A stretch of DNA of 64,000 nt. Origin: Candidatus Multivoradales bacterium (lineage in GTDB: Bacteria > Acidobacteriota > Thermoanaerobaculia > Multivoradales > JAHEKO01). Shown here in pieces: positions 26,510-63,475 of this stretch (position 1 is its first letter; every line of letters starts with the position of its first letter). Made by a program: the position numbers and the translations under genes. Under the pieces are notes generated by a model. That model was not told the origin of the DNA. It saw only the letters and a program-made list of their open reading frames with translations, and did no database searches. The DNA lies in the NCBI GenBank assembly GCA_965223155.1, contig CBDCVR010000014.1:1152001-1216000 (forward strand), written 5' to 3'.

Positions 26510-26586
26510 GCACCGATAGCTCAATTGGATAGAGCACCTGACTACGGATCAGGAGGTTGGGGGTTCGAATCCTCCTCGGTGCACCA
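26510..26586 (+). tRNA. tRNA-Arg(ACG)
   Basis: 77-nt cloverleaf: acceptor GCACCGA/TCGGTGC, D arm AGCTCAATTGGATAGAGC, anticodon stem CCTGA/TCAGG with loop CTACGGA, GTTCGAAT T-loop, encoded CCA. Confidence 0.98.
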
Positions 26587-47712: not shown

Positions 47713-50700
47713 ATGAAGATCGTCGAGTTCTCAACCCGCCGCCCGGTCTCGGTCTTCATCTTCGCGCTTGCCGCAGTGGTCTTCGGCTGGGTGTCCTTTC
47801 AGCGGCTGGCCCTCGATCTCCTTCCCGACATCACCTACCCCTCGGTCACGGTTCGCACCGAGTTCGAAGGCGCGGCGCCGGTCGAGGTCGAGAACCTGAT
47901 CAGCCGCCCCATCGAGAACGCCGTGGGTGTCGTCAATAACGTGGTGCGGGTGTCGTCGAGCTCGCGCTCGGACGTCAGCGAAGTGGTGCTGGAATTCAGT
48001 TGGGGCACCAACATGGACCTTGCCGCCCTCGACGTCCGGGAGCGCCTGGACGTCTTGCAGCTTCCCCAGGAAGCCGAGCGGCCGGTCTTGCTGCGGTACG
48101 ACCCGGCGCTAGATCCGATCCTGCGCCTGGGTCTCGCGGGCGACGAGGACCTGATCCGGCTTCGTCTCCTGGCCGAGGAACAGGTCAAGCGAGCTCTGGA
48201 GCGGATCGAGGGAGTGGCCGCCGCGGTGGTCTCCGGCGGCCTCGAAGAAGAAATTCAGGTCCGCATCGACGAGCGCCAGCTCGCCGGCCAGGACCTGGAC
48301 GTTGGCCGCGTCGTCGAGCGGCTGGCCCAGGAGAACGTCAACCTGACCGGCGGCCGGCTGCGCGAAGGCCAGACCGAGTTCATCGTGCGCACGGTCAACG
48401 AGTACCTGCGCGCCCAGGACCTCGAAGACGTCATCCTCTCCTCCTCGGGTGGAGCCGTGCTGCGTCTGCGGGATGTCGGGCGGGTAGTGCGGAGTCACAA
48501 GGAGCGCGAGATCGTGACCCGCATCAACGGGCGCGAGACGGTCGAGATCGCGGTCTACAAGGAGGGCGGCACCAATACCGTCGCGGTCTCGGACGCGGTC
48601 CAGGATCGGATCCAAGAGATTTCCGCCCGGCTCAAGCAGTCCGATCCCAGCCTCGAGCTGGTGGTCGTTACCGACCAGGCCCGCTACATCCGGCAGTCCA
48701 TCTCGGAGGTCTTGAAGACCGCTCTCATCGGCGGACTCCTCGCCATTGCCGTGCTGTTCGCGTTTCTCAGGAGCTGGAAGACGACCGCGATCGTGGGCCT
48801 GGCGATCCCGATCTCGGTGGTGGCCACCTTCTTTCTCATGTACGCCTTCGGCATCTCGCTCAACATCATGTCGCTGGGGGGCCTCACCTTGGGCATCGGT
48901 CTCTTGGTCGATAACTCGATCGTGGTCCTCGAATCCATCCAGCGCCGCCGGGAGCGGGGCTTGAACGTGGTCGAGGCAGCCGAAGCCGGCACCGGAGAGG
49001 TCGGACGCGCCGTCGTCGCCAGCACCATGACCACAATCTGCGTCTTCGTTCCGATCGTCTTCGTCGAAGGCATCGCCGGCCAGCTCTTCGGCGATCAGGC
49101 CTTGACCGTTACCTTCTCGCTGGTGGTCTCGCTCCTGGTGGCGCTCACCGTGATCCCGATGCTGGCCTCGCGGCGGTTTCGGCCGGACGCCGGGCCCGGC
49201 GAGAAGCAAGCGCACGAAACCCCGCGCGTGGGGCGCGCTGCCCGAGCGACCGCCGCCGTGCTCCGGCCCTTCCTGGCCGTGACGCGCGCCGTGGCCGGCG
49301 CCGTCCACCGGTTGCTCGAACCCGTTCTCGGCGTCATCGCCAAACTGCTGGACCGGATCCGGGACGGGTACGGGGTCGTCCTGGACGGGGCCCTGGCACG
49401 GCCCCTGGTGGCCGTAGCACTGGCGCTCGTGCTTCTGGCGGGAACCCTCCTTCTCGCCCCCAGACTGGGCCGCGAGCTGGTGCCGGAGCTGGTGCAAGGC
49501 GAATTTTTCGTCGACCTCGAGCTGCCACCGGGAACCAACCTGGAGGTCACCGACCGCCGGATGCGTCACATCGAGCGCGCCGCCGCCGAGCTGCCTCGAA
49601 CCGCCACCGTCTACGCCATCGCCGGTGCCTCGAACGAGCAGGGAGGCTCGGCCGGCGAGACTCGCGAGAACATCGGCCAGATCACCGTGGTTCTTGCTCC
49701 ACCGACGGACCGGGAGCTGGAAGACGGGCTCATCGAGGAGCTGCGCTCGACCCTGGACGACCAGCAGGAGCTCGACTACCGCTTCGCTCGGCCTTCGTAC
49801 TTCAGCTTCCGCACGCCGGTCGAAGTCGAGATTCGGGGATTCAACCTGGGCGTTCTCCGGCGGCTGGCGGCCGAGTTGACCCGCACCATGGGCTCGATCC
49901 CCGGCCTCGAAGACGTCAAGTCTTCGGCCGAAGGAGGCAACCCGGAGCTTCAGATCCGATTCGACCGCACGCTCTTGGCAAAGTACGGCCTCTCGATTGC
50001 CGACGTCGCTCCCGTGGTCCGCACCAAGATCCAGGGAGCGGTCGCCACCGACATCCAGCGGCAGGACCGAGCCATCGACATCCGGCTTCAGGCGGCCGAG
50101 GAATACCGCAACAGCGCCGACGATCTGGCCCGGCTCATCCTGGCTCAAGCCGGCGAGACCCCGATTCCACTGTCAGCGGTCGCCCGGATCCAGGAAGTCG
50201 AAGGGCCGGCCGAGATTCGCCGCGCCGAAGGCGAGCGGGTAGCGCTTATCACCGCCAACCTCGCCGGCCGCGACCTGGCAAGCACTTCACAGGACATCCG
50301 CCGGGCCCTCCAAGCGATGGACATGCCGAGCGGTTTCGACTGGGAGATCGGCGGCCAGCAGCAAGAAATGGATGTTTCCTTCCGGTCGATGCGTCTGGCG
50401 ATCCTGCTGGCGATCTTCATGGTCTATCTCGTGATGGCCTCTCAGTTCGAGTCCCTCCTCCATCCCCTGGTGATTCTGCTGAGCGTTCCGTTCGCCCTGG
50501 TCGGGGTTCTCCTGGCGCTGTGGCTGGCCCGGGTGAATCTCTCGATCGTGGTCCTGATCGGAGCGATCCTCTTGGCCGGAGTCGTGGTCAACAACGCCAT
50601 CCTGCTGGTCGACTACGCCAACCGCCTTCGCCGCCGGGGAGAGAAGAAGATCGAGGCGCTACGCCAGGCCGGCCGCGTGCGGTTGCGCCCCATCCTGATG

Positions 50701-50871
50701 ACCACGTCCACCACGGTCCTGGGCCTGGTACCCATGGCCATCGGCCTGGGCGAAGGCTCCGAGCTCAGAAGCCCGATGGCCCTGACCGTGATCGGAGGGC
50801 TCCTGACCTCGACCCTGCTGACCCTGGTGCTGGTGCCCGTCGTCTACAGCCTACTCGACCGGCGGCCGTAG
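47713..50871 (+). CDS. Second RND efflux permease (AcrB/AcrD/AcrF family)
   Basis: GLLVDNSIVVLE, VVNNAILLVD, RLRPILMTT, GGLLTST; 1052 aa. Confidence 0.94.
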   Translation: MKIVEFSTRRPVSVFIFALAAVVFGWVSFQRLALDLLPDITYPSVTVRTEFEGAAPVEVENLISRPIENAVGVVNNVVRVSSSSRSDVSEVVLEFSWGTNMDLAALDVRERLDVLQLPQEAERPVLLRYDPALDPILRLGLAGDEDLIRLRLLAEEQVKRALERIEGVAAAVVSGGLEEEIQVRIDERQLAGQDLDVGRVVERLAQENVNLTGGRLREGQTEFIVRTVNEYLRAQDLEDVILSSSGGAVLRLRDVGRVVRSHKEREIVTRINGRETVEIAVYKEGGTNTVAVSDAVQDRIQEISARLKQSDPSLELVVVTDQARYIRQSISEVLKTALIGGLLAIAVLFAFLRSWKTTAIVGLAIPISVVATFFLMYAFGISLNIMSLGGLTLGIGLLVDNSIVVLESIQRRRERGLNVVEAAEAGTGEVGRAVVASTMTTICVFVPIVFVEGIAGQLFGDQALTVTFSLVVSLLVALTVIPMLASRRFRPDAGPGEKQAHETPRVGRAARATAAVLRPFLAVTRAVAGAVHRLLEPVLGVIAKLLDRIRDGYGVVLDGALARPLVAVALALVLLAGTLLLAPRLGRELVPELVQGEFFVDLELPPGTNLEVTDRRMRHIERAAAELPRTATVYAIAGASNEQGGSAGETRENIGQITVVLAPPTDRELEDGLIEELRSTLDDQQELDYRFARPSYFSFRTPVEVEIRGFNLGVLRRLAAELTRTMGSIPGLEDVKSSAEGGNPELQIRFDRTLLAKYGLSIADVAPVVRTKIQGAVATDIQRQDRAIDIRLQAAEEYRNSADDLARLILAQAGETPIPLSAVARIQEVEGPAEIRRAEGERVALITANLAGRDLASTSQDIRRALQAMDMPSGFDWEIGGQQQEMDVSFRSMRLAILLAIFMVYLVMASQFESLLHPLVILLSVPFALVGVLLALWLARVNLSIVVLIGAILLAGVVVNNAILLVDYANRLRRRGEKKIEALRQAGRVRLRPILMTTSTTVLGLVPMAIGLGEGSELRSPMALTVIGGLLTSTLLTLVLVPVVYSLLDRRP

Positions 50872-51599: not shown

Positions 51600-52655
51600 A
51601 TGCAACTCGGAATCGTAGGCTTTCCCAAGACCGGCAAGACCACGCTCTTCAACCTCCTGACCCGCTCCCAGGAGACGACCGACAAGTTCTCGCAGAGCTC
51701 GGAGGCCCACGTCGCGCTGTGCCGCGTGCCCGACGCCCGGCTGGACCGCTTGAGCGAGCTCTTCCAACCCAAGAAGCACTCGCCGGCGACGGTGCAATTC
51801 GTCGACATTCCCGGCGTTACCCGCCAAGAAGGCGCGGCCGATCTCAACTTGACGAGCTTGAAGGACGTCGACGCCCTGGTGCACGTGGTGCGCGCCTTCG
51901 AAGACGACGAGATTCCGCACCCCGAGGGCTCGATCGATCCGGCCCGCGATCTCGCCTCGTTCGACCTCGAGCTGGTGTTCGCGGATCTCGAGCTGGTGGA
52001 ACGGCGGCTCGAGCGCCTGGAGAAGAACAAGAAGCGCGGCCTCAGTGCCAACGAGAAAGCCGAGACCGAGCTTCTTGCCGGCACCATTCAGCCGGCGCTC
52101 GAGAGTGAAACGCCCGTGCGCGACCTAGAGCTGGCTCCAGACGACGAAAAGAGGCTCCGCGGATTCCAGCTCCTCTCCGCCAAACCCTTGCTGGTGGTGT
52201 GGAACACCGGCGAGTCGAACCTGGACGATCGAGCGCCCGCGCTCGGTGACTCGGTGCGGACGGTGGTGATGAGCTTGCCGATCGAAGAAGAGATCGCCCA
52301 GCTTCCGTCCGCGGAGCAGGCCGACTTTCTGTCCGACCTGGGGCTCGATGAAGCGAGTCTCGACCGGGTTCTGCGAGCCGGCTACGAGCTTCTAGGCTCG
52401 ATCTCGTTCTTCACCGTCGGCGACGACGAATGCAAGGCGTGGACGATTCGCCGGGGCACGAAAGCCCAGCAGGCGGCCGGCACCATCCACTCCGACCTGG
52501 AACGAGGCTTCATCCGGGCCGAAGTCGTCGACTCTGAGACGCTCCTGGAGCTGGGTTCCCTGACCAAGTGCCGCGAAGCCGGGCTCCTGCGGCTGGAAGG
52601 CAAGGACTACGTCGTCGAAGACGGCGAGGTCCTGCACGTGCGCTTCAACGTATAG
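51600..52655 (+). CDS. ychF: YchF/Obg-family ATPase (DUF933 C-terminal TGS domain)
   Basis: GIVGFPKTGKTT, VPDARL, FVDIPG, FFTVG, AAGTIHSDLERGFIRAEV, EGKDYVV. Confidence 0.9.
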   Translation: MQLGIVGFPKTGKTTLFNLLTRSQETTDKFSQSSEAHVALCRVPDARLDRLSELFQPKKHSPATVQFVDIPGVTRQEGAADLNLTSLKDVDALVHVVRAFEDDEIPHPEGSIDPARDLASFDLELVFADLELVERRLERLEKNKKRGLSANEKAETELLAGTIQPALESETPVRDLELAPDDEKRLRGFQLLSAKPLLVVWNTGESNLDDRAPALGDSVRTVVMSLPIEEEIAQLPSAEQADFLSDLGLDEASLDRVLRAGYELLGSISFFTVGDDECKAWTIRRGTKAQQAAGTIHSDLERGFIRAEVVDSETLLELGSLTKCREAGLLRLEGKDYVVEDGEVLHVRFNV

Positions 52656-52768: not shown

Positions 52769-53542
52769 TCAGAAAATCGCCAGATCCCGCGCCCGCCGCA
52801 GCACCTCGGCCCCCAACCTGCTGTAGGCCTGGGCGCCCGCCGACCAGCGCTCGTACTCGAAGACGGTCATGCCGTGACGGGTCGCCTCGGCCAGAGTTAC
52901 GTTGACCGGAATCGTGGCGCGAAAGACCTGGCCGCTGTAGGCACGGCGGATCTTGCGCACCAGCTCATCGGTCATGCGCGTGCGGTGATCCACCATGGTC
53001 AGCAGAATCCCGAGGAGACGGGGCTTCTGCCGCCGGGTGGCGCCGATCGCCTGCATTCCTTCCAGGAAGCGCCCGATCGCCTCCAGAGAAAGCTGATGCG
53101 GCAGAACCGGAAGGATGTAGCCGTCCGCGGCCTCCAGGGCGTTGCGGGTCAAGAGCGACAGGCCGGGGGCGCAATCCAGGATCACGAGATCGTAGTGGCT
53201 CCGGATCGGTCTCAGGCGCTCGGAGAGCTTGCGCTCGGGCGAGCGCTTGCGGGCGAGCGCAATTTCGACGGTGGCAAGGTCCATGGTGCCGGTCAGGAGA
53301 TCCAGGCCCCTGAGACCCGTATCGACCAGCGCCTCGGCTGCGGGCACCTCCCCGGCCAGAACGTCGGCGACGGACGGCTTGAGCTGCTCGCGCGGTACCC
53401 CCAGCGCCGTCGACGCGGAGCCCTGGGGGTCCAGGTCAACCAGTAGCACCCGGAGCTCGCTCATGGCGAAGGCCGCGGCCAGGTTGACCGCGGTTGTGGT
53501 CTTGCCGACTCCGCCCTTGACGTTGGTGAGCGCCAGGATCAT
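52769..53542 (-). CDS. ParA/Soj family ATPase (orphan)
   Basis: KGGVGKTT, VDLDPQG, ILDCAP, LGILLTM, IPVNVTLAEA; ATG 53542. Confidence 0.9.
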   Translation of the reverse strand: MILALTNVKGGVGKTTTAVNLAAAFAMSELRVLLVDLDPQGSASTALGVPREQLKPSVADVLAGEVPAAEALVDTGLRGLDLLTGTMDLATVEIALARKRSPERKLSERLRPIRSHYDLVILDCAPGLSLLTRNALEAADGYILPVLPHQLSLEAIGRFLEGMQAIGATRRQKPRLLGILLTMVDHRTRMTDELVRKIRRAYSGQVFRATIPVNVTLAEATRHGMTVFEYERWSAGAQAYSRLGAEVLRRARDLAIF

Positions 53543-53729
53543 CGTTCCGCCGGCAAGTCTAGCGCTTCGGACAGGGCCAAGCGGGGCCGTTTGCAGAACC
53601 CCCAGGAGGGCCAGACCCATCGAGCCCGAGTCCCGCCGGCGCGCGGCGGCAATGTGAGAAGGTCGGACCAAGCCGGCGCGGTCCAATCCCGCTCGGGCCC
53701 CCAGGCTCTGGACTTCCGAGGAGACGAGC

Positions 53730-54416
53730 ATGCCCAAGACCCATTTCCGCCCCGCCCTCTTTCGCTTCTTGCGAGAGCTCAAGGCCAACAATGACCGCGA
53801 CTGGTTCAAGGCCAATCAGGAGCGCTACGAAGACGCGGTCAGGGAGCCGGCGCTGGCGTTCATCAGCGATTTCGGACCCAAGCTCGAGGCCATCAGCCCT
53901 CAGTTCCTGGCGGTGCCCAAGAAGGTGGGCGGTTCGCTCTTTCGCATCCACCGCGACGTCCGCTTCGCTCGGGACAAGAGCCCGTACAAGACCCACACCG
54001 GCATTCAGTTTCGCCACAAGCAGGGACGCGACGCCCACGCCCCGGGCTTCTACCTGCACCTGGAACCCGGCCGCTGCTTCGCCGGCGCCGGCATCTGGCG
54101 TCCGGACGGCGAGGCCACCAAGAAGATCCGGAGCTACATTGCCGCCAACCCGGCGACCTGGAAGCGAGCGGTCCATGGCAGCCGTTTTCGCGACACCTTC
54201 GAGCTTTCGGGAGACAGCCTCAAGCGACCTCCGCGCGGGTTCGATCCCGAGCACCCGTTGGTCGCCGACCTCAAGCGCAAGGACTTCATCGGAGTCGCCA
54301 AGATCAGCCAGAAGGACATCACCTCGGCCGGCTTCCTCAATCAGTACGCGGCTCTGTGCCGGCGGGGCGCGCCGCTCATCCGGGCTCTGTGCGAAGCGGT
54401 CGGAATGCCCTTCTAG
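53730..54416 (+). CDS. DUF2461 (TIGR02453) family protein
   Basis: NNDRDWF, FRIHRDVRFARDKSPYK, PGFYLH, LKRPPRGF. Confidence 0.9.
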   Translation: MPKTHFRPALFRFLRELKANNDRDWFKANQERYEDAVREPALAFISDFGPKLEAISPQFLAVPKKVGGSLFRIHRDVRFARDKSPYKTHTGIQFRHKQGRDAHAPGFYLHLEPGRCFAGAGIWRPDGEATKKIRSYIAANPATWKRAVHGSRFRDTFELSGDSLKRPPRGFDPEHPLVADLKRKDFIGVAKISQKDITSAGFLNQYAALCRRGAPLIRALCEAVGMPF

Positions 54417-54432: not shown

Positions 54433-55680
54433 TCACGACAAGCCCGGCAGACGCCACGCGGTCAAGCGCAGGCTGGCCTCGACTCCCTGCGGGGCCTCGT
54501 CCTCGCCAATTCCGTAGTAGCTCCTCAGTTGGTCCTCGAGCTGGGAGGCGAGCACCACCACGCCGCCGTCGTCCTGAGGCAAGAGATGGAAAGCGGCCGC
54601 CCCGTCCGGAAGCCGGTAGGCGCCGAGCTCCAGGCCCAACCGGCGGGCGCGGACGGCGGTCAGGGCTAGCCCGGCAAGCTCCTCGACGACCCGCAGCTTG
54701 ACCGCGCCGTCTCTCATGTTGGGGATGAGGATGTTCGCGATCACGGTCGTCGCTCGCGCTTTGTCCGCGGCGTTCTCACCGGTGGCGTCGGGCGGCGTCA
54801 GAAGCTCGGCCAGCGGCCGCCGGCTCCAGGCGGCGAGCTCGACCCAACGATTCGCGATCTCGGTCGCCACCTGCTTGGCGAAGACCGGATAGATCGGACC
54901 CGCGACCCGGGTCTCCTGCGGATGGAGATCGGGACGCTGGACGAAGCGCAGGGCAAACGCGCCCTCGGCGGCCAGCGCCTCCGCCACCCTGGGCTCGGCC
55001 AGGCGCCGGCGGAGCCGGTCCTCGACGTCGCCGAGGACACCGTCCCCGACGTCGGGCCGGGCCACGAGCTCATGGATGACCTCGAGCCAGGCCCGGTCGG
55101 CGACGACCGCCACCAGCGAGCCGACCAAATTGGGCTGACCGTGCAGACACGAGCTCAAGACCTCGAGGGTCGTCAGCGCCGATGCCGTCTCGTCCCAGTT
55201 CCCGCCATCCATTGCCGAGTAGGCCTGCGCGCGAAGCAACCGGACCGCCCGGATCGCCGGTTGCGACCAGCTCACCGCTTGACTCGGAAGGTCGTCCCAG
55301 ACGCAGCCGGATCGCCCGGCCGCGGCCCGCAGCCCGTCGAGCTCGGACCGATGGGCCGCAAGCCAGGCCACGACCGCGCGGCGATCGGTCTCGTCCCAAG
55401 CCGACGGCGGACCCAGGCCTTGAGGCTCGCCGTCGCCGGAAGCTTGCCCGACCGCGTCCAGAAAGCCCGAAACCTGGTTCGATTCGGGCTCGATCGCCGG
55501 CCGCAGATAGGTCGTATGGTCGGCCGGACCGACCTCTCGTTCGTAGCGCAGGACCGCATCCTCGTAGGCGCTCTCGGCGCGGGTCAGGAAGAGCCAGTAG
55601 AGAACGGACAGGAAGACGGCGCCCACCAGCGTCCAGACGAAGACGGTGCGCGCGAAGCGTCCCGGCCGCATGCCACTCAC
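54433..55680 (-). CDS. Hypothetical membrane-anchored helical protein
   Basis: N-terminal TM helix and long alpha-helical body. Confidence 0.6.
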   Translation of the reverse strand: MSGMRPGRFARTVFVWTLVGAVFLSVLYWLFLTRAESAYEDAVLRYEREVGPADHTTYLRPAIEPESNQVSGFLDAVGQASGDGEPQGLGPPSAWDETDRRAVVAWLAAHRSELDGLRAAAGRSGCVWDDLPSQAVSWSQPAIRAVRLLRAQAYSAMDGGNWDETASALTTLEVLSSCLHGQPNLVGSLVAVVADRAWLEVIHELVARPDVGDGVLGDVEDRLRRRLAEPRVAEALAAEGAFALRFVQRPDLHPQETRVAGPIYPVFAKQVATEIANRWVELAAWSRRPLAELLTPPDATGENAADKARATTVIANILIPNMRDGAVKLRVVEELAGLALTAVRARRLGLELGAYRLPDGAAAFHLLPQDDGGVVVLASQLEDQLRSYYGIGEDEAPQGVEASLRLTAWRLPGLS

Positions 55681-55903
55681 GCCGGGAGCCTAGCAGCCCA
55701 TGGTCGAAGTCCAGAGGGTCGCGCGACAAGGTCCCCCCGGGCCGCATCCACGGCACGACGACGATTCGATGCGGTGCCTCGGAGACGGCCGGGAGCCCGG
55801 CCGACGTGCAGCAACCCATTCGTCGCCACGCCCGCTTCCCCGAGGGCGGTGAGCCCACGGGCGGATAGAATTCGCCCGGATCGTCGAATTGATACTCGAA
55901 CTG

Positions 55904-56251
55904 ATGCTCGAACTAATCTGCACCCGGACCTGAAGCACCTGTCGCAAGGCGGTCGCCTTGCTCGACGAACACGGCATCGACTACCGCTACCGCGAGTATC
56001 GTAAGGAGCCACTCTCGCAGGCCGAGATCGCGCGCATCCTGGACCTCTTGGGAGCCACGCCGCGCGACCTGCTGCGCACGCGCGATCGTGCCTACCGGGA
56101 GCTCGGCCTGACGGGGACCGAGACCGACGCCGCCTTGATTGCTTTCATGGCCGAGCATCCGACCCTGCTCCAGCGTCCCATCGCCGTGACCGAGACCAGC
56201 GCCGTTCTCGGACGCCCGGTCGAGAACCTCCTGAGCTTGACTCCGAGCTGA
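55904..56251 (+). CDS. arsC: ArsC/Spx-family selenoprotein (Sec at UGA 55931-55933)
   Basis: ATG 55904 reads MLELICTRT-UGA-STCRKA in frame with the track ORF; LLRTR, LLQRPI and LGRP conserved; SECIS-like hairpin follows the UGA. Confidence 0.85.
55941..55966 (+). promoter_or_regulatory. Bacterial SECIS-like hairpin
   Basis: GTC-GCAAGGC-[GGTC]-GCCTTGC-TC-GAC; 17 nt between the UGA and the loop. Confidence 0.75.
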
Positions 56252-56270: not shown

Positions 56271-57458
56271 TCAGGCCACGATCTCGAGCGCGTGGCTGCG
56301 CCGGAAAAAGACCAGCCGCCCCTCCTCGACGTCGATGTCCACGACGTCTCCAGGCTCGACGCTCTCGGCCGCGATCAGCCGCGACAGGGGGTCCACCAGC
56401 TCGCTCTCCACCGCCCGCCGCAAGGGCCGGGCTCCCAGCCGGAGGTCGGTTCCCCGCTCCACGATCCAGCGGCGCGCCGCCGGCGTCGGGCGGATCAGGA
56501 TCGGCACGCCGGCGTACTTCAGAGCGCGGTCGTGGACCTCGGCCAGGAACTTGTCGAAGATGGCTTCCAGATCCTCTTCCTCGAGCGCTGAGTAGACCAG
56601 CACCTCGTCGAAGCGGTTCAGGAACTCGGCGGGAAAGCTCTCCCGCGCCGCCTTGAGCGTCAGCTCCACCACGGCGTCGTCGGTCTCGGCCGTGGAGCGG
56701 TCGTCCCGGCCGAAGCCCACCGGTGCCCGTTCCAGAAAGCGGCCCAGCTCGGCACTGCCCACATTCGAAGTGAGCAAGATGATCGAGCCGGTGAGGTCGG
56801 TCGTCTGGTTGTTCCCCAGTGTCAACGTCCCGTCCTCCAGGACTCCCAGGAGCGCGTTCCACAACGCCGGATCGGCTTTCTCGATCTCATCGAAGAGCAA
56901 CACCGAAACGCAGGCGTCCGGGTCGCCGGCGACGATTCTCTCGGCCAGCGGCGCCTCAGCGGCCGGGCCGTCCTCTCCGGCCTTCTTGAGCCGGCGGTGC
57001 GGAGCGTCGATCAAGCCCTGGCTCAGCAGCGGCTCGGTCTGGTGCCCGACGTAGCCGGGCGGCGAGCCCAAAAGCTTGGCGATCTCGTGCCCATGGGCGT
57101 ACTCCTCGCAGTTGATCCGGGTCAGTGCCGTTTCGTCACCGAAACAGGCCTCGGCGACCGCTTTGGCGGTCTCGGTCTTGCCGACGCCGGTCGGCCCCAG
57201 AAGCAGGGCCGTCATCAGCGGCCGGCGTGGATCGCGCAGCCCCGAGAGCAGGCGCGACGATGAGCCGACCAAAGCCGCAATGGCCCGCTCCTGACCGATC
57301 ACCCGCCGGTCGAGCGCTTCGGCCAGAGGCTGGATCGCCCGCGCCGGCCGCTCGGTGTCGAGTCGTTCGCGCGGAGCTAGCTCGAGCAGCCCTTCGGCGT
57401 GACGCGACACCCGGAGATCGGTCGTACGTGCCTCAACATCGACCTCGAACTTGGTCAT
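56271..57458 (-). CDS. Stand-alone ClpA/B/C second AAA+ module (AAA_2 plus D2-small)
   Basis: VIGQ, GPTGVGKT, GSPPGYVG, LLFDEIEKA, TSNVG, EFLNRFD, GARPLRR; ATG 57458. Confidence 0.88.
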   Translation of the reverse strand: MTKFEVDVEARTTDLRVSRHAEGLLELAPRERLDTERPARAIQPLAEALDRRVIGQERAIAALVGSSSRLLSGLRDPRRPLMTALLLGPTGVGKTETAKAVAEACFGDETALTRINCEEYAHGHEIAKLLGSPPGYVGHQTEPLLSQGLIDAPHRRLKKAGEDGPAAEAPLAERIVAGDPDACVSVLLFDEIEKADPALWNALLGVLEDGTLTLGNNQTTDLTGSIILLTSNVGSAELGRFLERAPVGFGRDDRSTAETDDAVVELTLKAARESFPAEFLNRFDEVLVYSALEEEDLEAIFDKFLAEVHDRALKYAGVPILIRPTPAARRWIVERGTDLRLGARPLRRAVESELVDPLSRLIAAESVEPGDVVDIDVEEGRLVFFRRSHALEIVA

Positions 57459-57651
57459 GGTAGGACCCCCATTGAGAAGAAGGTGAGGCCGACCAAGAAG
57501 GGCAAGGGCGCGATGGAAGCCGCTGGAACCGCCTTCGCACGGGCACCGGAGCCGGCATGCTCGCAAGCGGTAGCAGGACGCTTGCAAGCGCGCCGGATAG
57601 AGCGTGTACGAAGTGGGTTCCAGTGATTCTTCTCATCTCACCCGTTCTCTA

Positions 57652-57727: not shown

Positions 57728-58432
57728 TCAGTCGAGCTCGAAGAGACGGCGAACTTCAGCCGGGACCTGGAAGGACTCCGTCTCCGAGCGCCGAGCCCGT
57801 AGAAACCGCACGGTCAGGGCATAGGCCTGGCGTTCTTGGGCAATGCGCCGGTACTCGAAGTCTTCCCGGGCCCAGCCGGCAACGTAGCGCCGCATGTACT
57901 CCTCGAAGCCCAGCTCCTCGTACTGCGTCAGGTGCACGAGCTCGTGAAACAGCAGGCCTTCGCTTGGCTCGAACCGGGCTGCGCCGTTCCTGGCCACCGG
58001 CCCAGCCACCAGGATGGTATCGATCAGGGCCAGCCCTGAGGCGTGGGCGAGGTCCAGCGGATAGGGCTCGCCCAGCCGGTCGAAGAGTCGGAACACTTCG
58101 GGATTCCGGAACCGTTCGACCACCGCGATCCGCGCGCCGTCCAGGACGCTTCGAGAAAAATAGGGCTCGAAGAGACGCCGCTGCGCGGACGACAGCGGCA
58201 GCGCGCGGTCCCTGTGGCGATCCCGCTCGTCCCGCACCCACTCGCTGAGCCCGGTCTCGAGACGCTCGATCTCAGCCGGCGTGAGTCGTCCGGGCGAGCG
58301 GCCGTCGCCGGCGTCGGCTTGCGGCTGGGAACAACCCAACCAGAATGCCGATACCGGCAGGACCGCGAGCACCACGGCGGCCAACCTCCCGAATGTCGTT
58401 CGGGTGGGACGAAGCGAAGAATCAACCGGCAC
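57728..58432 (-). CDS. HExxH zinc-metallopeptidase-like lipoprotein (DUF4157-like)
   Basis: WLGC lipobox, LLFHELVHLTQY, QERQAY. Confidence 0.7.
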   Translation of the reverse strand: MPVDSSLRPTRTTFGRLAAVVLAVLPVSAFWLGCSQPQADAGDGRSPGRLTPAEIERLETGLSEWVRDERDRHRDRALPLSSAQRRLFEPYFSRSVLDGARIAVVERFRNPEVFRLFDRLGEPYPLDLAHASGLALIDTILVAGPVARNGAARFEPSEGLLFHELVHLTQYEELGFEEYMRRYVAGWAREDFEYRRIAQERQAYALTVRFLRARRSETESFQVPAEVRRLFELD

Positions 58433-58496
58433 CGCCGGATGGTACCTCGCCCTCCCGCGGGATCCCGTCCAGCCGGGATTCGACTACCATACGCGG

Positions 58497-59666
58497 ATGC
58501 AAGTTCGAACCCGACCCTCCTCGTTCCCGGACGCCGTCTTCTCGCTAGCCCTCCTGGTAGCCGTAAGCGCGCTGGCACCCGCTGCCGCCCGCGCGGATCA
58601 CCACGATCCCAATCCCCCGGCGCCCGGCTTCCTTCTCGAAGAGTCCCACGCCGAAGCGCTGGAGATCGCCGACCGCGTCATGGACCGCCTCGGCGGCCGC
58701 GCCGCGCTGGATCGAACGCGCTTCGTGACCTGGAAATTCTTCGGCCGGCGCTTCCACGTCTGGGACCGGCACTCGGGCGACATTCGTGTCGAAGGCACGG
58801 ACCGGGAAAGCGGCGAGACCTACCTGGTTTTGATGAACCTCGACTCCAAGAAGGGACGTGCCTGGCGCGAGGGTGCCGAGGTCGAGGGCGAGGCTCTGGG
58901 CACCCTGCTCGAGCTGGGCGAATCGGCCTGGATCAATGACAGCTATTGGCTCTTCATGCCCTACAAGCTCAAGGACACGGGTGTCGTGCTGCGCTACGTG
59001 GGCGAGGGCACGATGCTCGACGGCGGCACCGCCGACGTCCTCGAGCTGACCTTTCGCGAAGTCGGGAAGACGCCCGAGAACCGCTACCACGTCTACGTCG
59101 GACGGGACTCCGATCTGGTCGAGCAATGGGACTTCTACACCCGCGCCGAAGACGAGGAACCGCGTTTCCGGATTCCCTGGCGGAACTGGCGCCAGCACGG
59201 CGACATCCTGCTGTCCGACGACCGCGGCCGCGGCAAACACTCGGACCTGGCGGTGTTCGACGAGCTCCCGTCAGCGGTCTTCACCAGCCCCGAACCGGTG
59301 GACCTGGACTCCTTCCCGCGCGCGGCTTCGAGCCGCAGCCTGACCGGGCAGCCGATCTATGCCGTCGAAGGCGAGGTCGTCAAACCGGCGCTCCTCGAAT
59401 CAGCCGCGCCGCAGTATCCCGAAGCCGCACGCGACGCCGGCACCGAGGGCCTCGTCGTGGTCAAGACCGTAATCGGAGCCGACGGTTCCATCCGGGACGC
59501 CTGGGTCGATGAATCGCTCACCGAAGAGCTCGACGCGGCGGCGCTCGAAGCGATCCGCGCCTGGCGCTTCGAGCCCGCGACTCTGGGCGGCGAAGCGGTA
59601 CCCGTCTACTACACCCTGACCGTCAACTTCCAGTTGGACGGGGAGCCGGCCGAAGACTCCGACTAG
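58497..59666 (+). CDS. Exported protein: DUF6503/LolA-like N-terminal domain fused to a TonB C-terminal domain
   Basis: Signal peptide; VMDRLGG, WINDSYWLFMPYKLKD, VGKTPENRY; C-terminal PQYPEAAR..G.V.V..VIGADG..AALEAIRAWRFEPA. Confidence 0.75.
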   Translation: MQVRTRPSSFPDAVFSLALLVAVSALAPAAARADHHDPNPPAPGFLLEESHAEALEIADRVMDRLGGRAALDRTRFVTWKFFGRRFHVWDRHSGDIRVEGTDRESGETYLVLMNLDSKKGRAWREGAEVEGEALGTLLELGESAWINDSYWLFMPYKLKDTGVVLRYVGEGTMLDGGTADVLELTFREVGKTPENRYHVYVGRDSDLVEQWDFYTRAEDEEPRFRIPWRNWRQHGDILLSDDRGRGKHSDLAVFDELPSAVFTSPEPVDLDSFPRAASSRSLTGQPIYAVEGEVVKPALLESAAPQYPEAARDAGTEGLVVVKTVIGADGSIRDAWVDESLTEELDAAALEAIRAWRFEPATLGGEAVPVYYTLTVNFQLDGEPAEDSD

Positions 59667-60293: not shown

Positions 60294-60387
60294 TGCGTGG
60301 ATCTCCTCTCACAAAAGAGCTTGGATCTTACCTTCCTTTCGGTCAGGATAGGTGATTCACGCCGTCAACTTCCCGGAGATCCCGTCC

Positions 60388-61368
60388 ATGCAAGAAACCG
60401 TTCGCGTCGCCATCACTGGAGCCGCCGGCAACATCGGCTACCAGCTCTGCTTTCGCATTGCGGCGGGCGACATGTTGGGACCGGATCAGCCGGTACGGTT
60501 GCAGCTCATCGAGATCCCTCCGGCTTTGGACGCCCTCCAAGGCGTCGTCATGGAGCTCAAGGACGGCGCCTTTCCGCTTCTGGATGGCGTGGTGGCCACG
60601 TCGGACTACGAAGAGGGATTTGCGGAGGCCGATTACGCCATCCTGGTGGGCGCCAAGCCGCGCGGCAAGGGCATGGAGCGCAAGGATCTTCTGGCCGACA
60701 ACGGTAAGATCTTCGGCCCGCAGGGCAAGGCGATCAACGACCACGCCGCCCGCTCCGTCCGGGTGCTGGTGGTGGGCAATCCGGCCAACACGAATTGCCT
60801 GATCGCCCAATCGGCCGCTCCGGACCTCGATCCGCGCCAGTTCACGGCGATGACCCGCCTGGATCACAACCGCTCGCTCAGCCAGCTCGCGGACAAGACC
60901 GGCGCCCACGTCGCGGGCATCAAGAAGATGACGATCTGGGGCAACCATTCGGCGACCCAGTATCCGGACGTCTCGCACGTGGAAATCGAAGGCCGGCCGG
61001 CCTTCGAGCTGATCGATCGGGACTGGTACGCGAGCGAGTTCATCCCCACCGTGCAGCAGCGCGGAGCCGCCATCATCAAAGCGCGAGGCGCGTCCTCGGC
61101 GGCGTCGGCGGCGTCGGCGGCGATCGACCACATCCGCTCATGGGCCCTGGGCACGCCCGAGGGCGACTGGGTGAGTATGGCGGTGCCGGCGGACGGCAGC
61201 TACGGCATCGAGCCCGGCATCGTCTACTCCTATCCGTGCACCACGAGCGGCGGCGGCTACGAGATCGTTCAAGGCTTGGAGGTCGACGCCTTCAGCCGCG
61301 AGCGCATGGACGCAACCGAGGCCGAGCTGCGCGAAGAGCGCGCGGCGGTCGAAGACCTCCTCGGCTGA
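60388..61368 (+). CDS. mdh: Malate dehydrogenase
   Basis: [57 protein letters not shown]. Confidence 0.97.
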
Positions 61369-61375
61369 TTCTGCC

Positions 61376-62056
61376 GTGCGCGGCGAAGGCGTCATCAAGT
61401 TCTCCTTCGAGCACCAACCGGATCGTCTCGACTCCTCCCAGCTTCTGGACCTCGTCTGCCCGCTCATCGCGTGGCGGGAGATCCTGTCCCTGACCCGGCT
61501 CGTGGGCCAGGATCGCGACCGTTACGAAGGCGCCGGATACGGCAACGTGAGCGTGCGCGTCGGGCGTCCGGGCAAGGGCCTCGGGCGGCGGAGCTTCCTC
61601 ATCACCGGCACCCAGACCTCGGGCAAGCGCTGCGTCGGCCTTCCTGACTTCTGCATCGTCGAGCGCTACGAACTGGAGCGGAACCACCTGGTGAGCCGCG
61701 GACCGGTCAAGCCTTCGTCCGAGTCCCTGACCCACGGCGCCGTCTACGACTTGGGGCCACACATCCGGTGCGTTCTCCACGCCCACACCCCGGCGCTCTG
61801 GGCCCGGCGGCTAGACCTGGGGCTGCCCGAGACCGCGCCCGAGGTCGAGTACGGCACGCCGGCCATGGCTCGCGAGGTCCAGCGCCTCTACCGCGAGGGC
61901 CTGCTGGCCGAGCGCCGCATCCTGGCCATGGGCGGCCATGAGGACGGCATCGTGGCCTTCGGCCGAAGCCCCGACGAAGCCGGCGGCACCTTGATCCAAT
62001 GGCTGGCGCGAGCCTATGAGGCCGACTGCCGTCCCGGCGCCACCCTCTGCACCTGA
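61376..62056 (+). CDS. Class II aldolase/adducin family protein
   Basis: GYGNVS, PSSESLTHGAVY, HAH, YGTP, MGGHEDG. Confidence 0.85.
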   Translation: MRGEGVIKFSFEHQPDRLDSSQLLDLVCPLIAWREILSLTRLVGQDRDRYEGAGYGNVSVRVGRPGKGLGRRSFLITGTQTSGKRCVGLPDFCIVERYELERNHLVSRGPVKPSSESLTHGAVYDLGPHIRCVLHAHTPALWARRLDLGLPETAPEVEYGTPAMAREVQRLYREGLLAERRILAMGGHEDGIVAFGRSPDEAGGTLIQWLARAYEADCRPGATLCT

Positions 62057-62073: not shown

Positions 62074-63342
62074 CTAGGGTGAGCCCGCGGTCAGGAGCTC
62101 GACCTCGAGCTTTCGACCGGCCCGATCCAAGGTAACGATGACCCGGCTTTCGGGCTTCCGCAGCCAACTCCGAACCCCGTCCAGCCCAAGCTCCGCGACC
62201 GGTCTGCCGTCGATCGCCACCAGGCGGTCGCCCAGCTCGATTCCTGCCCGCTCCGCGGGGCTCCCGGGCGCCACCGCCAGGGCCCGGATGCGGTCGAAAT
62301 CCTCGCCCTCGGAGGTCAAGAACAACCCCGAGGCATCCCACCGGATGGGCTCGTCCGCTAGCGCCGAGGGCTCCAGGATGAGGCGGCCGCGGGAGGCGTC
62401 GAAGATCGCGCGGAAACGCTCCAGGATGGCCGCTCCCAAAATCCCGTCGCGGTCGGGATTGCCATAGGCGCCGCGAGCGTCGGTGGGCGCGAGGGTCACC
62501 GGCAGGTCCTCGAGCTCGAGGCCGCCGAACTCCAATCCATCCAGAATCGCCAGATAGTGGCGAACCTCCCCGCCCACGCCGACGCCAACCGTCGTCAGCA
62601 CCTCGGCACCGACAAGCTCGCGCAGTTCATGCTTGTCTAGGAAAGGAGCCGAAAACCCGACCGTGCCGCGCGCGCCGGTGTCGACAATGAGCTCCGCCGG
62701 GAACCGCTGGCCGCCCGCCGCTACCGTCGCCTGGACCCGCCACTTGGCGTTGGCGTCCAGCCGCACCGGGAGCACCACGCCGCCGCCCGAGTACTCGAAG
62801 GTCTCGGGCTCGTGCAGGGTCATCGTCCGGTTCGGGTAATCGACGTCCACGACGAAGCGGCGGAAGAGGTCGGCACCGAGGAGACCCGACGAAGGATGGC
62901 CGTTGGCCCCCTGGGTGTTGCGCTCGAGGACCGCCACGGGACGCGAAGCCAGCTCGACGCCGGGTAGCCGCATGGCCGGCGCTCGCGCGAACGCAAATCG
63001 GAACTCGCCGCCACCCGCAGCTCCGTCGGCCGTTCCCCCGCCCCGCAGCTCGAGTCCCAGCCGCTCGGCGAGATCCCGGTCCAAGATCGAGACGTTGGCG
63101 CCGCTGTCGAGAAGGAGCCAGACCTCGCTGCCATCTTCGAGCTCGGCGCGAACGTGGACCTTGCCCGACGCCAGGCGGATGGGCATGGTCGCCGCCCGGG
63201 CGCTGGCTTCGGAGCCGGCACCGACTTCGAACTCGGCCTCGAGAGTGAAGTCCTGACCCAGAAGCGGATCGGAACCGAACCCTCCGAGCCCGGCAAAACC
63301 CACTCCGCCAAAGATGGCCAGAACGCGAATGATCGACTGCAT
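62074..63342 (-). CDS. Secreted aspartyl protease (two retropepsin domains) with C-terminal PDZ
   Basis: LLDSGA, GLLGADL, IVDTGA, GILGA, GSPAERAGIELGD; ATG 63342. Confidence 0.85.
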   Translation of the reverse strand: MQSIIRVLAIFGGVGFAGLGGFGSDPLLGQDFTLEAEFEVGAGSEASARAATMPIRLASGKVHVRAELEDGSEVWLLLDSGANVSILDRDLAERLGLELRGGGTADGAAGGGEFRFAFARAPAMRLPGVELASRPVAVLERNTQGANGHPSSGLLGADLFRRFVVDVDYPNRTMTLHEPETFEYSGGGVVLPVRLDANAKWRVQATVAAGGQRFPAELIVDTGARGTVGFSAPFLDKHELRELVGAEVLTTVGVGVGGEVRHYLAILDGLEFGGLELEDLPVTLAPTDARGAYGNPDRDGILGAAILERFRAIFDASRGRLILEPSALADEPIRWDASGLFLTSEGEDFDRIRALAVAPGSPAERAGIELGDRLVAIDGRPVAELGLDGVRSWLRKPESRVIVTLDRAGRKLEVELLTAGSP

Positions 63343-63475
63343 GGAACTCTCCCTGTCGTTCTTTGGACACGGGTGGCCAAGACCCGGTTCCCGGCGTGAA
63401 ACGCGAACTTCTTCGCATCGAATACCATGCAAGGTGGACTCGGTGCCCCTCAGCTACACCGGTGTCCCATAGACG

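Follow-up and report, generated by a model that had tools for sequence, protein, structure and literature searches.

The 64,000-nucleotide (nt) stretch of DNA analyzed here, referred to as the window, spans positions 1,152,001 to 1,216,000 of the forward strand of contig CBDCVR010000014.1 (assembly GCA_965223155.1), from a Candidatus Multivoradales bacterium of the Acidobacteriota class Thermoanaerobaculia. It contains a short gene of the ArsC/Spx superfamily that is interrupted, near its 5' end, by an in-frame TGA. The list of open reading frames (ORFs) for the window shows only 55958..56251 (+), a 97-amino-acid (aa) product with a TTG start that lacks the catalytic N-terminus. As an earlier reading of the letters alone (the sequence-only reading) had pointed out, in-frame extension upstream reaches an ATG at 55904 and gives M-L-E-L-I-C-T-R-T-[TGA]-S-T-C-R-K-A-V-A-L-L, with the TGA exactly at the nucleophilic cysteine of the motif CSTCRKA; we verified both the ORF start and the extension, and in an alignment the residue at the TGA, U10, falls on C12 of the R773 ArsC protein. 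We conclude that 55904-56251 (+) is very probably one intact gene, encoding a 115-residue ArsC/Spx-superfamily protein in which the codon-10 UGA is decoded as selenocysteine (Sec), and the comparisons described below make it nearly certain that this is a genuine selenoprotein gene miscalled by gene finders. The features of the gene and of its surroundings are collected in Table 1.

Table 1. Features of the putative selenoprotein gene and of the surrounding window (positions are those of the window)
Feature	Position	Strand	Basis or remark
Full ArsC/Spx-fold gene, predicted selenoprotein	55904..56251	+	115 codons including Sec10, plus stop; TGA=U translation; 16 orthologues align from residue 1
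ATG start codon	55904..55906	+	Same column in 16 orthologues: 13 ATG, 2 GTG
In-frame TGA, U10, first residue of the UxxC motif	55931..55933	+	Equals Cys12 of R773 ArsC; TGA in 16/16 family orthologues
TTG (Leu19), gene-caller start of the 97-aa product	55958..55960	+	Inside 3' arm of hairpin; ORF list
True stop, TGA, without a hairpin 3' of it	56249..56251	+	Homology of all relatives stops here
Upper hairpin of the putative selenocysteine insertion sequence	55944..55961	+	7-bp stem, 55944-50 with 55955-61; GGTC apical loop, 55951-54
Possible lower hairpin extension, 55940-43 with 55964-67 over a 2-nt bulge	55940..55967	+	Minimum-free-energy fold, window genome only
tRNA	26510-26583		Rfam
AcrB-type resistance-nodulation-division (RND) pump	47713-50871	+	Pfam
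YchF GTPase	51600-52655	+	Pfam
ParA/MinD-like ATPase	52769-53815	-	Pfam
415-aa ORF without any Pfam match, divergent upstream neighbor	54433-55680	-	Pfam
ClpX/HslU-like AAA ATPase, convergent downstream neighbor	56271-57587	-	Pfam
TonB-C protein	58281-59666	+	Pfam
Malate/lactate dehydrogenase	60352-61368	+	Pfam
Class II aldolase	61376-62056	+	Pfam
Aspartyl-protease/PDZ protein	62074-63432	-	Pfam

Orthologues begin with the consensus peptide M/V-[LI]-[ED]-L-[IL]-C. There is no clear Shine-Dalgarno motif upstream of ATG 55904 in the window genome; GGAG is present in several orthologues. The start of the gene also coincides with a near-tandem 12-nt repeat (window 55895-55918; CTCGAACTGATG / CTCGAACTAATC, 10/12 identical), through which L-E-L is encoded twice, just before ATG 55904 and again after it. 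At the other end, the gene terminates in a second TGA that no hairpin follows, which shows that this organism uses TGA as a normal stop wherever no selenocysteine insertion sequence (SECIS) stands 3' of it.

Just 3' of the in-frame UGA lies a stem-loop with a G and a U in its apical loop, at about the distance seen in Escherichia coli. Its elements are those that had been described from the letters, and all of them were confirmed: GCAAGGC (55944-55950) pairs with GCCTTGC (55955-55961) in a 7-bp stem closed by GGTC, the interval between TGA and loop is exactly 17 nt (55934-55950), the stem begins 10 nt after the UGA, and the GGUC loop occupies nt 21-24 counted from the U of UGA. In the account of the E. 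coli SECIS on which we draw (PMC8659212, in part), the upper stem-loop starts 11 nt after the UGA, G23 and U24 lie in the apical loop, and there is a bulged U17. The statement of the sequence-only reading that the E. coli fdhF loop contains GGUC is upheld to the extent of G23 and U24 in an apical loop whose stem-loop starts 11 nt from the UGA. The possible lower extension of the hairpin is without conservation support, as the flanking columns vary among orthologues. Searched against Rfam with gathering thresholds, the entire window gave the tRNA listed in Table 1 and no SECIS family match, a null result that is little informative because bacterial SECIS elements are short.

Relatives of the gene were sought in 45 genomes of the window family (E <= 1e-8), yielding 20 matches: 16 cover the N-terminus, two are distant Cys-type ArsC paralogues, and two are C-terminal fragments that are not assessable. 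The 16 N-terminally covered orthologues consist of the window gene and 15 genes in 14 other genomes (identity 54-98%; 54-72% for the 15 others), and codon 10 is TGA in every one. The peptide upstream of it, M/V-[LI]-[ED]-L-[IL]-C-[TK]-[RQ]-T, is conserved, and the nine codons that encode it vary synonymously, with five codons used for Leu4 and four for Arg8 among the 16 sequences, which shows that the stretch before the TGA is translated. Alignment of homologues, put forward with the sequence-only reading as a way to check it, places Cys or TGA exactly at the Sec column and finds the nine upstream residues conserved through synonymous changes. Comparison thus shows conserved coding sequence on both sides of an in-frame UGA. 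The pattern extends beyond the family: TGA is present in 8/8 clade members within a 401-genome phylum sample, and in 14/14 and 12/13 clade genes in two sets of species-representative genomes. Genomes with the TGA form are labeled Acidobacteriota (Thermoanaerobaculia), Gemmatimonadota, Planctomycetota, and Polyangia/Myxococcales, with some doubtful labels of metagenome-assembled genomes among them, and the pooled, de-duplicated clade set holds 46 distinct TGA-form genes.

The TGA is also consistent across contigs. Contigs of two public runs (X1 and X2) match the window sequence with no variant at the TGA or hairpin; among 29 and 18 contigs, which come from the window organism and its relatives, variants occur at 55934-36, at 55942, and from 55963 onward, and none at the TGA or at 55943-55962. 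Public assemblies holding the window DNA show TGA only, rather than TGC or TGT, and an assembly error is therefore not the explanation. Three metatranscriptome contigs from two libraries (two in X13, one in X15), belonging to the window gene or its relatives, span the TGA and hairpin; they are only a hint of transcription, DNA carry-over being possible, and no proof of translation. We note that in X1 and X2 the summed depth of contigs climbs from ~5 to 200-445 across the TGA/hairpin segment (window 55914-55977), and that assemblies break at 55939-55945; this near-invariant stretch is common to many organisms in those samples. About 4-5% of sampled window words are present in 18 further runs of other studies, which is uninformative on habitat.

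Conservation at the RNA level can be separated from conservation of the peptide. Codons 14-19, which encode R-K-A-V-A-L and make up the hairpin, each use a single codon in 15-16 of the 16 family sequences, compared with three to five codons at other invariant Leu, Arg, Pro, and Gly positions. Stem pairing is intact in 112/112 pair cells of the family alignment, with a single compensatory change, from A-U to G-C, and a single G-U pair. A wider comparison sets the 46 TGA forms against 10 Cys forms with the same peptide, namely L145 from the genome collection and nine metagenome loci, with TGC at the Sec codon. The 18-nt hairpin is identical to that of the window in 37 of the TGA forms, with one, two, or three differences in six, two, and one of them, and the GGTC loop is present in all 46; among the Cys forms the hairpin is identical in 1/10 and the loop is GGTC in 3/10, the numbers of differences from the window 18-mer being zero (one locus), one (two), two (three), three (two), four (one), and five (one). 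Changes within TGA-form stems include compensatory double changes in L053 (C-G to U-A) and in L032 and L072 (A-U to G-C), and G-U wobbles in L034, L066, and L067. It is conservation and not folding energy that decides whether the hairpin is more than chance: it is kept in TGA forms and not in Cys forms, and its synonymous sites are frozen. Judged in this way, it is under selection as RNA and not only as protein. These TGA/Cys pairs with and without the hairpin provide a clean natural example of RNA constraint on coding sequence.

Some Cys-coding (TGC) metagenome loci retain a relic hairpin, with no changes in L168 and one each in L169 and L170, and their sequences suggest recent Sec-to-Cys conversions with a relic SECIS. 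A sister clade (loci L079-L134 and L058-L064; 40-50% identity to the window protein) has the motif V-Y-E-K-P-T-[U/C]-[ST]-K-C-R-E. Its codon at the Sec position is TGA in 34/56 loci, mostly with Pyrinomonadaceae/Blastocatellia labels, and Cys in 22/56, some of them labeled Melainabacteria/Obscuribacterales. The sister-clade TGA forms have another conserved stretch farther 3', GCTGCTC-CGTGA-GAGCGGC, which can form a 7-bp hairpin.

The genome that carries the window (4.0 Mb in 15 contigs, 98.7% complete; family label Thermoanaerobaculia) is equipped for Sec incorporation. A search for selA, selB, selD, and tRNA-Sec had been named as the first check of the selenoprotein proposal, and all four were found above curated cut-offs: selA at 455 bits, selB at 325 bits, selD at 253 bits, and, at 73 bits, a tRNA-Sec whose anticodon is TCA. 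Together with the TGA at codon 10 throughout the family orthologues, this bears out the suggestion that Sec is used in this lineage. On another contig, the same genome has a gene for an FdhA-like (formate-dehydrogenase-alpha-like) molybdopterin enzyme (contig C13:455081-455821 (-), locus L042). A single TGA interrupts its frame within A-A-T-U-H-A-P-T-V-A-G-L, and 3' of this TGA stands a 7-bp hairpin, perfectly paired, whose GGUCU loop spans nt 22-26 counted from the U. On sequence grounds it is a probable second selenoprotein; its score is below the TIGR01553 cut-off, so only a broad enzyme type is given. Both genes would be served by the same SelB, and the same GGUC loop stands at almost the same distance in each (nt 21 versus nt 22). 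We therefore regard the window genome as that of a selenocysteine user with at least two selenoproteins. SelD is encoded as the C-terminal part of a 782-aa ORF (L010:1390-3738 (-), contig C15), the N-terminal half of which has a Pyr_redox_2 domain (residues 31-330); SelD fusions with a pyridine-nucleotide-disulfide oxidoreductase domain have been described earlier.

Several points weigh against Sec decoding at codon 10. Its support is comparative throughout, and we found no direct evidence of selenium incorporation for any clade member. The stability of the hairpin is ordinary for G+C-rich DNA: the 58-nt segment folds at -16.7 kcal/mol (z = -0.78), and 43/200 shuffles fold as well. Covariation in the family alignment is thin: five of the seven pairs are invariant, a double change occurs once, and 25/500 shuffles reach the observed score. 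Three TGA forms (L054, L056, and L057) have a single stem mismatch. Relative to the E. coli model (PMC8659212, as far as it is used here), the 5' arm of the window hairpin lacks the bulged U, and its loop G-U is 1 nt nearer the UGA. The comparison of TGA and Cys forms also has limits of composition, because the TGA forms are kin and not independent, both sets were gathered by similarity, and the nine metagenome Cys loci were chosen by a pattern that fixes the peptide (T-C-x-T-C-R-K-A-V-A-L-L), so that the figures are counts with no test attached. Nonetheless, the gene presents, at the level of sequence, all of the computational features usual for bacterial selenoproteins.

Two other ways of reading the TGA have to be considered. 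It could be read through as Trp or Cys, by near-cognate suppression or a reassigned code, and W does stand at the Sec column in 3 of the 120 best database clusters, which is the output expected of a gene-caller table with TGA=Trp. We consider this very improbable, since the gene's own terminator is a TGA at which all homology ends, the genome has the full Sec machinery and tRNA-Sec, the TGA falls on a redox Cys column with Cys homologues, and the GGTC loop accompanies every TGA form and only 3 of the 10 Cys forms. Least probable of all is that TGA 55931 is a stop and the product is the 97-aa protein from TTG 55958, without the catalytic motif, of a decayed gene or pseudogene: such a form is indeed the protein-database model (P0002), 73 of the 120 best clusters have the same truncated shape, and ATG 55904 has no Shine-Dalgarno motif, but the nine codons before the TGA and the eight between TGA and TTG vary synonymously while keeping the peptide in 16/16 orthologues, the same TGA recurs in 46 distinct genes of several phyla when decay would give differing lesions, the Cys forms possess the full N-terminus, and a product of 97 aa would leave the predicted fold without strand beta-1 and without the beginning of helix alpha-1.

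With codon 10 read as Sec, decoding would follow the standard bacterial pathway: SelB, with GTP and Sec-tRNA(Sec), would bind the GGUC-loop hairpin 10 nt after the UGA and deliver Sec at codon 10 while the ribosome is on the UGA. The letters of the hairpin also encode the opening turns of helix alpha-1 (R14-K-A-V-A-L19), which explains why its synonymous sites are frozen and why gene callers find a TTG start in its 3' arm.

The protein obtained by reading through the TGA matches Pfam ArsC (PF03960, 59.8 bits), with a weaker match to Glutaredoxin. Its best NCBIfam match is TIGR00014 (glutaredoxin-type arsC), at 89.1 bits against a cut-off of 106.05, and at 83.2 bits, also below, in the genome search; TIGR01617 (Spx/MgsR) scores 67.0 bits against 75.05, and NF041106 ('ArsC family (seleno)protein') 18.2 bits against 85. 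An AlphaFold2 model built with 22 clade members as input has a mean predicted local distance difference test (pLDDT) score of 94.4, has helix alpha-1 at residues 11-22, and superposes on the ArsC structures 3rdw, 3f0i, and 1i9d with a template modeling (TM) score of 0.91, and on Spx at 0.78-0.87. In a HMMER alignment to R773 ArsC (1jzw/1i9d), U10 equals C12, and R58, R91, and R104 equal R60, R94, and R107 (numbering counted from the printed alignment); the three ArsC arginines named in the sequence-only reading (LLR58, QR91P, GR104P) are thus in place, and they and U10 are invariant in the 22 aligned clade members. The Protein Data Bank titles 'C12S mutant' and 'R60A mutant' indicate that those residues have been studied in R773 ArsC. 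Other positions follow a different pattern: Cys13, in U-S-T-C-R-K, stands at the position of ArsC Ser15 and reproduces the Spx CxxC-R-K-A pattern, and the nearly invariant Cys6, four residues before Sec, replaces the His of the H-N-P-R-C found in L036 and L037, ArsC-type relatives from the same family of genomes. This His is the residue by which R773 ArsC tunes the pKa of its Cys12.

Given that the product is a selenoprotein, we lean toward a general thiol/selenol redox protein of unspecified substrate, and favor this over both an arsenate reductase and an Spx-like regulator. Sec10, at the N-terminus of helix alpha-1 and in the place of Cys12 of R773 ArsC and Cys10 of Spx, would be the nucleophile that attacks the substrate; Cys13 would resolve the adduct by forming a selenenyl-sulfide, to be reduced in turn by a thiol system of the cell. 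The arginine triad known from ArsC (Arg58, Arg91, and Arg104) could bind an oxyanion, and Cys6 may take part. A more specific proposal, which we advance tentatively as a possibility, is that the clade defined by LIC-x-x-T-U-x-T-C-R-K-A-V-A-L-L is a housekeeping Sec redox protein and not an arsenate reductase, with a Cys6/Sec10/Cys13 center, in which Sec is ancestral and Cys forms, some of them still with a relic hairpin, have arisen repeatedly by recent conversion. Cys6 would then stand in place of the pKa-tuning His, with Sec10 as the nucleophile and Cys13 as the resolving residue, and the SECIS would be locked into the code of helix alpha-1, hence its letter-identical form in 37/46 genes, across four or more phylum labels.

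A true glutaredoxin-coupled arsenate reductase acting in arsenic detoxification, with a Se-As(V) adduct at Sec10, is a doubtful but plausible alternative for such a selenoprotein. The best NCBIfam match and the nearest solved structures are ArsC, the equivalents of Cys12 and Arg60/94/107 are present and invariant in the 22 clade members, and the Cys forms are named 'arsenate reductase (glutaredoxin)' in databases, although these names are automatic. However, the TIGR00014 score falls short of the 106 bits set for the equivalog, the motif has the U-x-x-C form known from Spx in place of C-x-x-S, and the HNPxC His is replaced by Cys6; the arginine triad, moreover, is conserved also in non-reductase members of the superfamily. 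Genomic context points the same way. No ars operon adjoins the gene at the 16 loci: arsR, arsB/acr3, and arsA were absent from the window flanks and from the ~1.5-kb flanks of the 15 orthologous loci (the longest 100 of 162 flank ORFs were scanned), and a search of the window genome, which is 98.7% complete, found neither of the efflux genes Acr3 and ArsB. The only other arsenate-reductase-like candidate seen in that genome is a low-molecular-weight-phosphatase-type arsC-like match (L171, contig C14:440835-441212 (-)), with 112 bits to TIGR02691, below its cut-off of 174. Of the proposed 'Sec-dependent arsenate or thiol reductase', the selenoprotein part therefore stands, on the conservation of TGA and hairpin and on the machinery, and the arsenate part is doubtful, given the sub-cut-off TIGR00014 score, UxxC in place of CxxS, and the lack of ars neighbors.

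An Spx-like redox-sensing regulator that binds RNA polymerase, with a U10-C13 selenenyl-sulfide as its switch, is the less probable of the two alternatives and, for a selenoprotein of this clade, improbable. The N-terminal motif resembles Spx CxxC-R-K-A, and the TIGR01617 score of 67 bits and the TM scores to Spx are in keeping with it, but that score is below the cut-off of 75, the ArsC structures fit better, and the protein has 115 aa against the 131-132 aa of Spx chains, being ~16 residues shorter at the C-terminus. Spx is known from Firmicutes, whereas this clade occurs in Acidobacteriota, Gemmatimonadota, and Myxococcota-type genomes.

The neighborhood of the gene (Table 1) adds little to a choice of function. 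A conserved operon partner was considered and rejected, as only the ClpX/HslU-like neighbor recurs, at two same-genus loci; by Pfam, the longest 100 of the 162 ORFs in the flanks of the 15 orthologous loci are a changing mix of aminotransferase/GntR, amidohydrolase, AcnX, FAD-binding, and other genes that differ by genus. With no recurrent neighbor, there is no partner from which function could be inferred.

The main value of the finding is as a correction of annotation, because the clade is represented in public protein sets mostly by catalytically headless fragments. The truncation by standard pipelines that had been anticipated is borne out by the public protein for the window contig (P0002), which is exactly the 97-aa piece, and by the 120 best database clusters, 73 of which are N-truncated, with 44 full-length Cys homologues and the 3 that have W. 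Truncated clade records are 94-105 aa long and, where named, go under 'arsenate reductase (glutaredoxin)' or 'ArsC/Spx/MgsR family protein'. With a dedicated model for the clade that takes in the near-invariant SECIS, many Acidobacteriota, Gemmatimonadota, Planctomycetota, and Polyangia records would be repaired. Of some biological interest are the SECIS, kept almost letter for letter from one phylum label to the next, and the relic hairpins of Cys forms; the substrate is a more modest question.

Several known systems are close to the one described here. R773 ArsC (PDB 1i9d, 1jzw) has the same fold, with ~31% identity at the TM score given above, and shares the nucleophile column and the equivalents of Arg60/94/107; the window protein differs from it in having Sec for Cys, C13 for Ser15, and Cys6 for the HNPxC His, and in having no ars operon. 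With Spx/MgsR (Bacillus subtilis Spx; PDB 1z3e, 3gfk), it has in common the fold and a motif of CxxC type that opens helix alpha-1 and is followed by R-K-A, and it differs in its sub-cut-off match to TIGR01617, its shorter C-terminus, the Sec that comes first in the motif, and its occurrence in other phyla. NF041106 (ArsC_rel_Se_1) is a curated model of ArsC-related selenoproteins, so Sec in this superfamily is recognized by NCBI; the model does not, however, capture the window clade, which is probably why the records of the clade stay truncated.

Selenoproteins of the ArsC type have been predicted before, and the window gene is not new in this sense: sequence comparison places it in a subfamily whose members had been predicted as selenoproteins by 2008 (Zhang & Gladyshev, PLoS Genet, PMC2398784), so that, although 'hidden' from gene callers as the sequence-only reading had it, it was not hidden from the literature. 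As far as the parts of these sources used here go, 'ArsC-like' selenoproteins were reported in two Deltaproteobacteria (Zhang et al. 2006, PMC1794560), UxxS ArsC selenoproteins were first reported in a 2005 Sargasso Sea paper (reference 45 of PMC9312934), and a 2022 review (PMC9312934) lists both ArsC groups, the UxxC one as 'Arsenate reductase-like protein, COG1393, UxxC'. The table of the 2008 Global Ocean Sampling (GOS) study has 77 sequences under 'Arsenate reductase (ArsC) 1, UxxS' and 42 under 'Arsenate reductase 2, cd03032, UxxC' (PMC2398784). The window protein is of the same fold family as the latter group and has the same UxxC Sec position. In supplement s003 of that paper, a motif search finds two reads under 'Arsenate reductase 2 UxxC' with the clade signature L-I-C-x-x-T-U-x-x-C-R-K-A-V-A-L-L, one of which also has H-P-T-L-L-Q-R-P-I-G and a G-R-P-x-E-N-L-L end; the resemblance was assessed by eye on the printed sequences, without an alignment tool. 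The group is heterogeneous, most of the listed reads belonging to another subfamily of the D-W-x-Y-F-R-x-G-U type. The portions of the GOS paper used here give no function, SECIS description, or host taxa for the subfamily, whereas the window example comes from a near-complete genome. Finally, the UxxS ArsC proteins of the GOS and Sargasso sets (PMC2398784, same portions) share with the window protein a Sec at the Cys12 position, but they keep H-N-P-x-U-x-x-S-R where the window clade has L-I-C-x-x-T-U-x-T-C-R-K.

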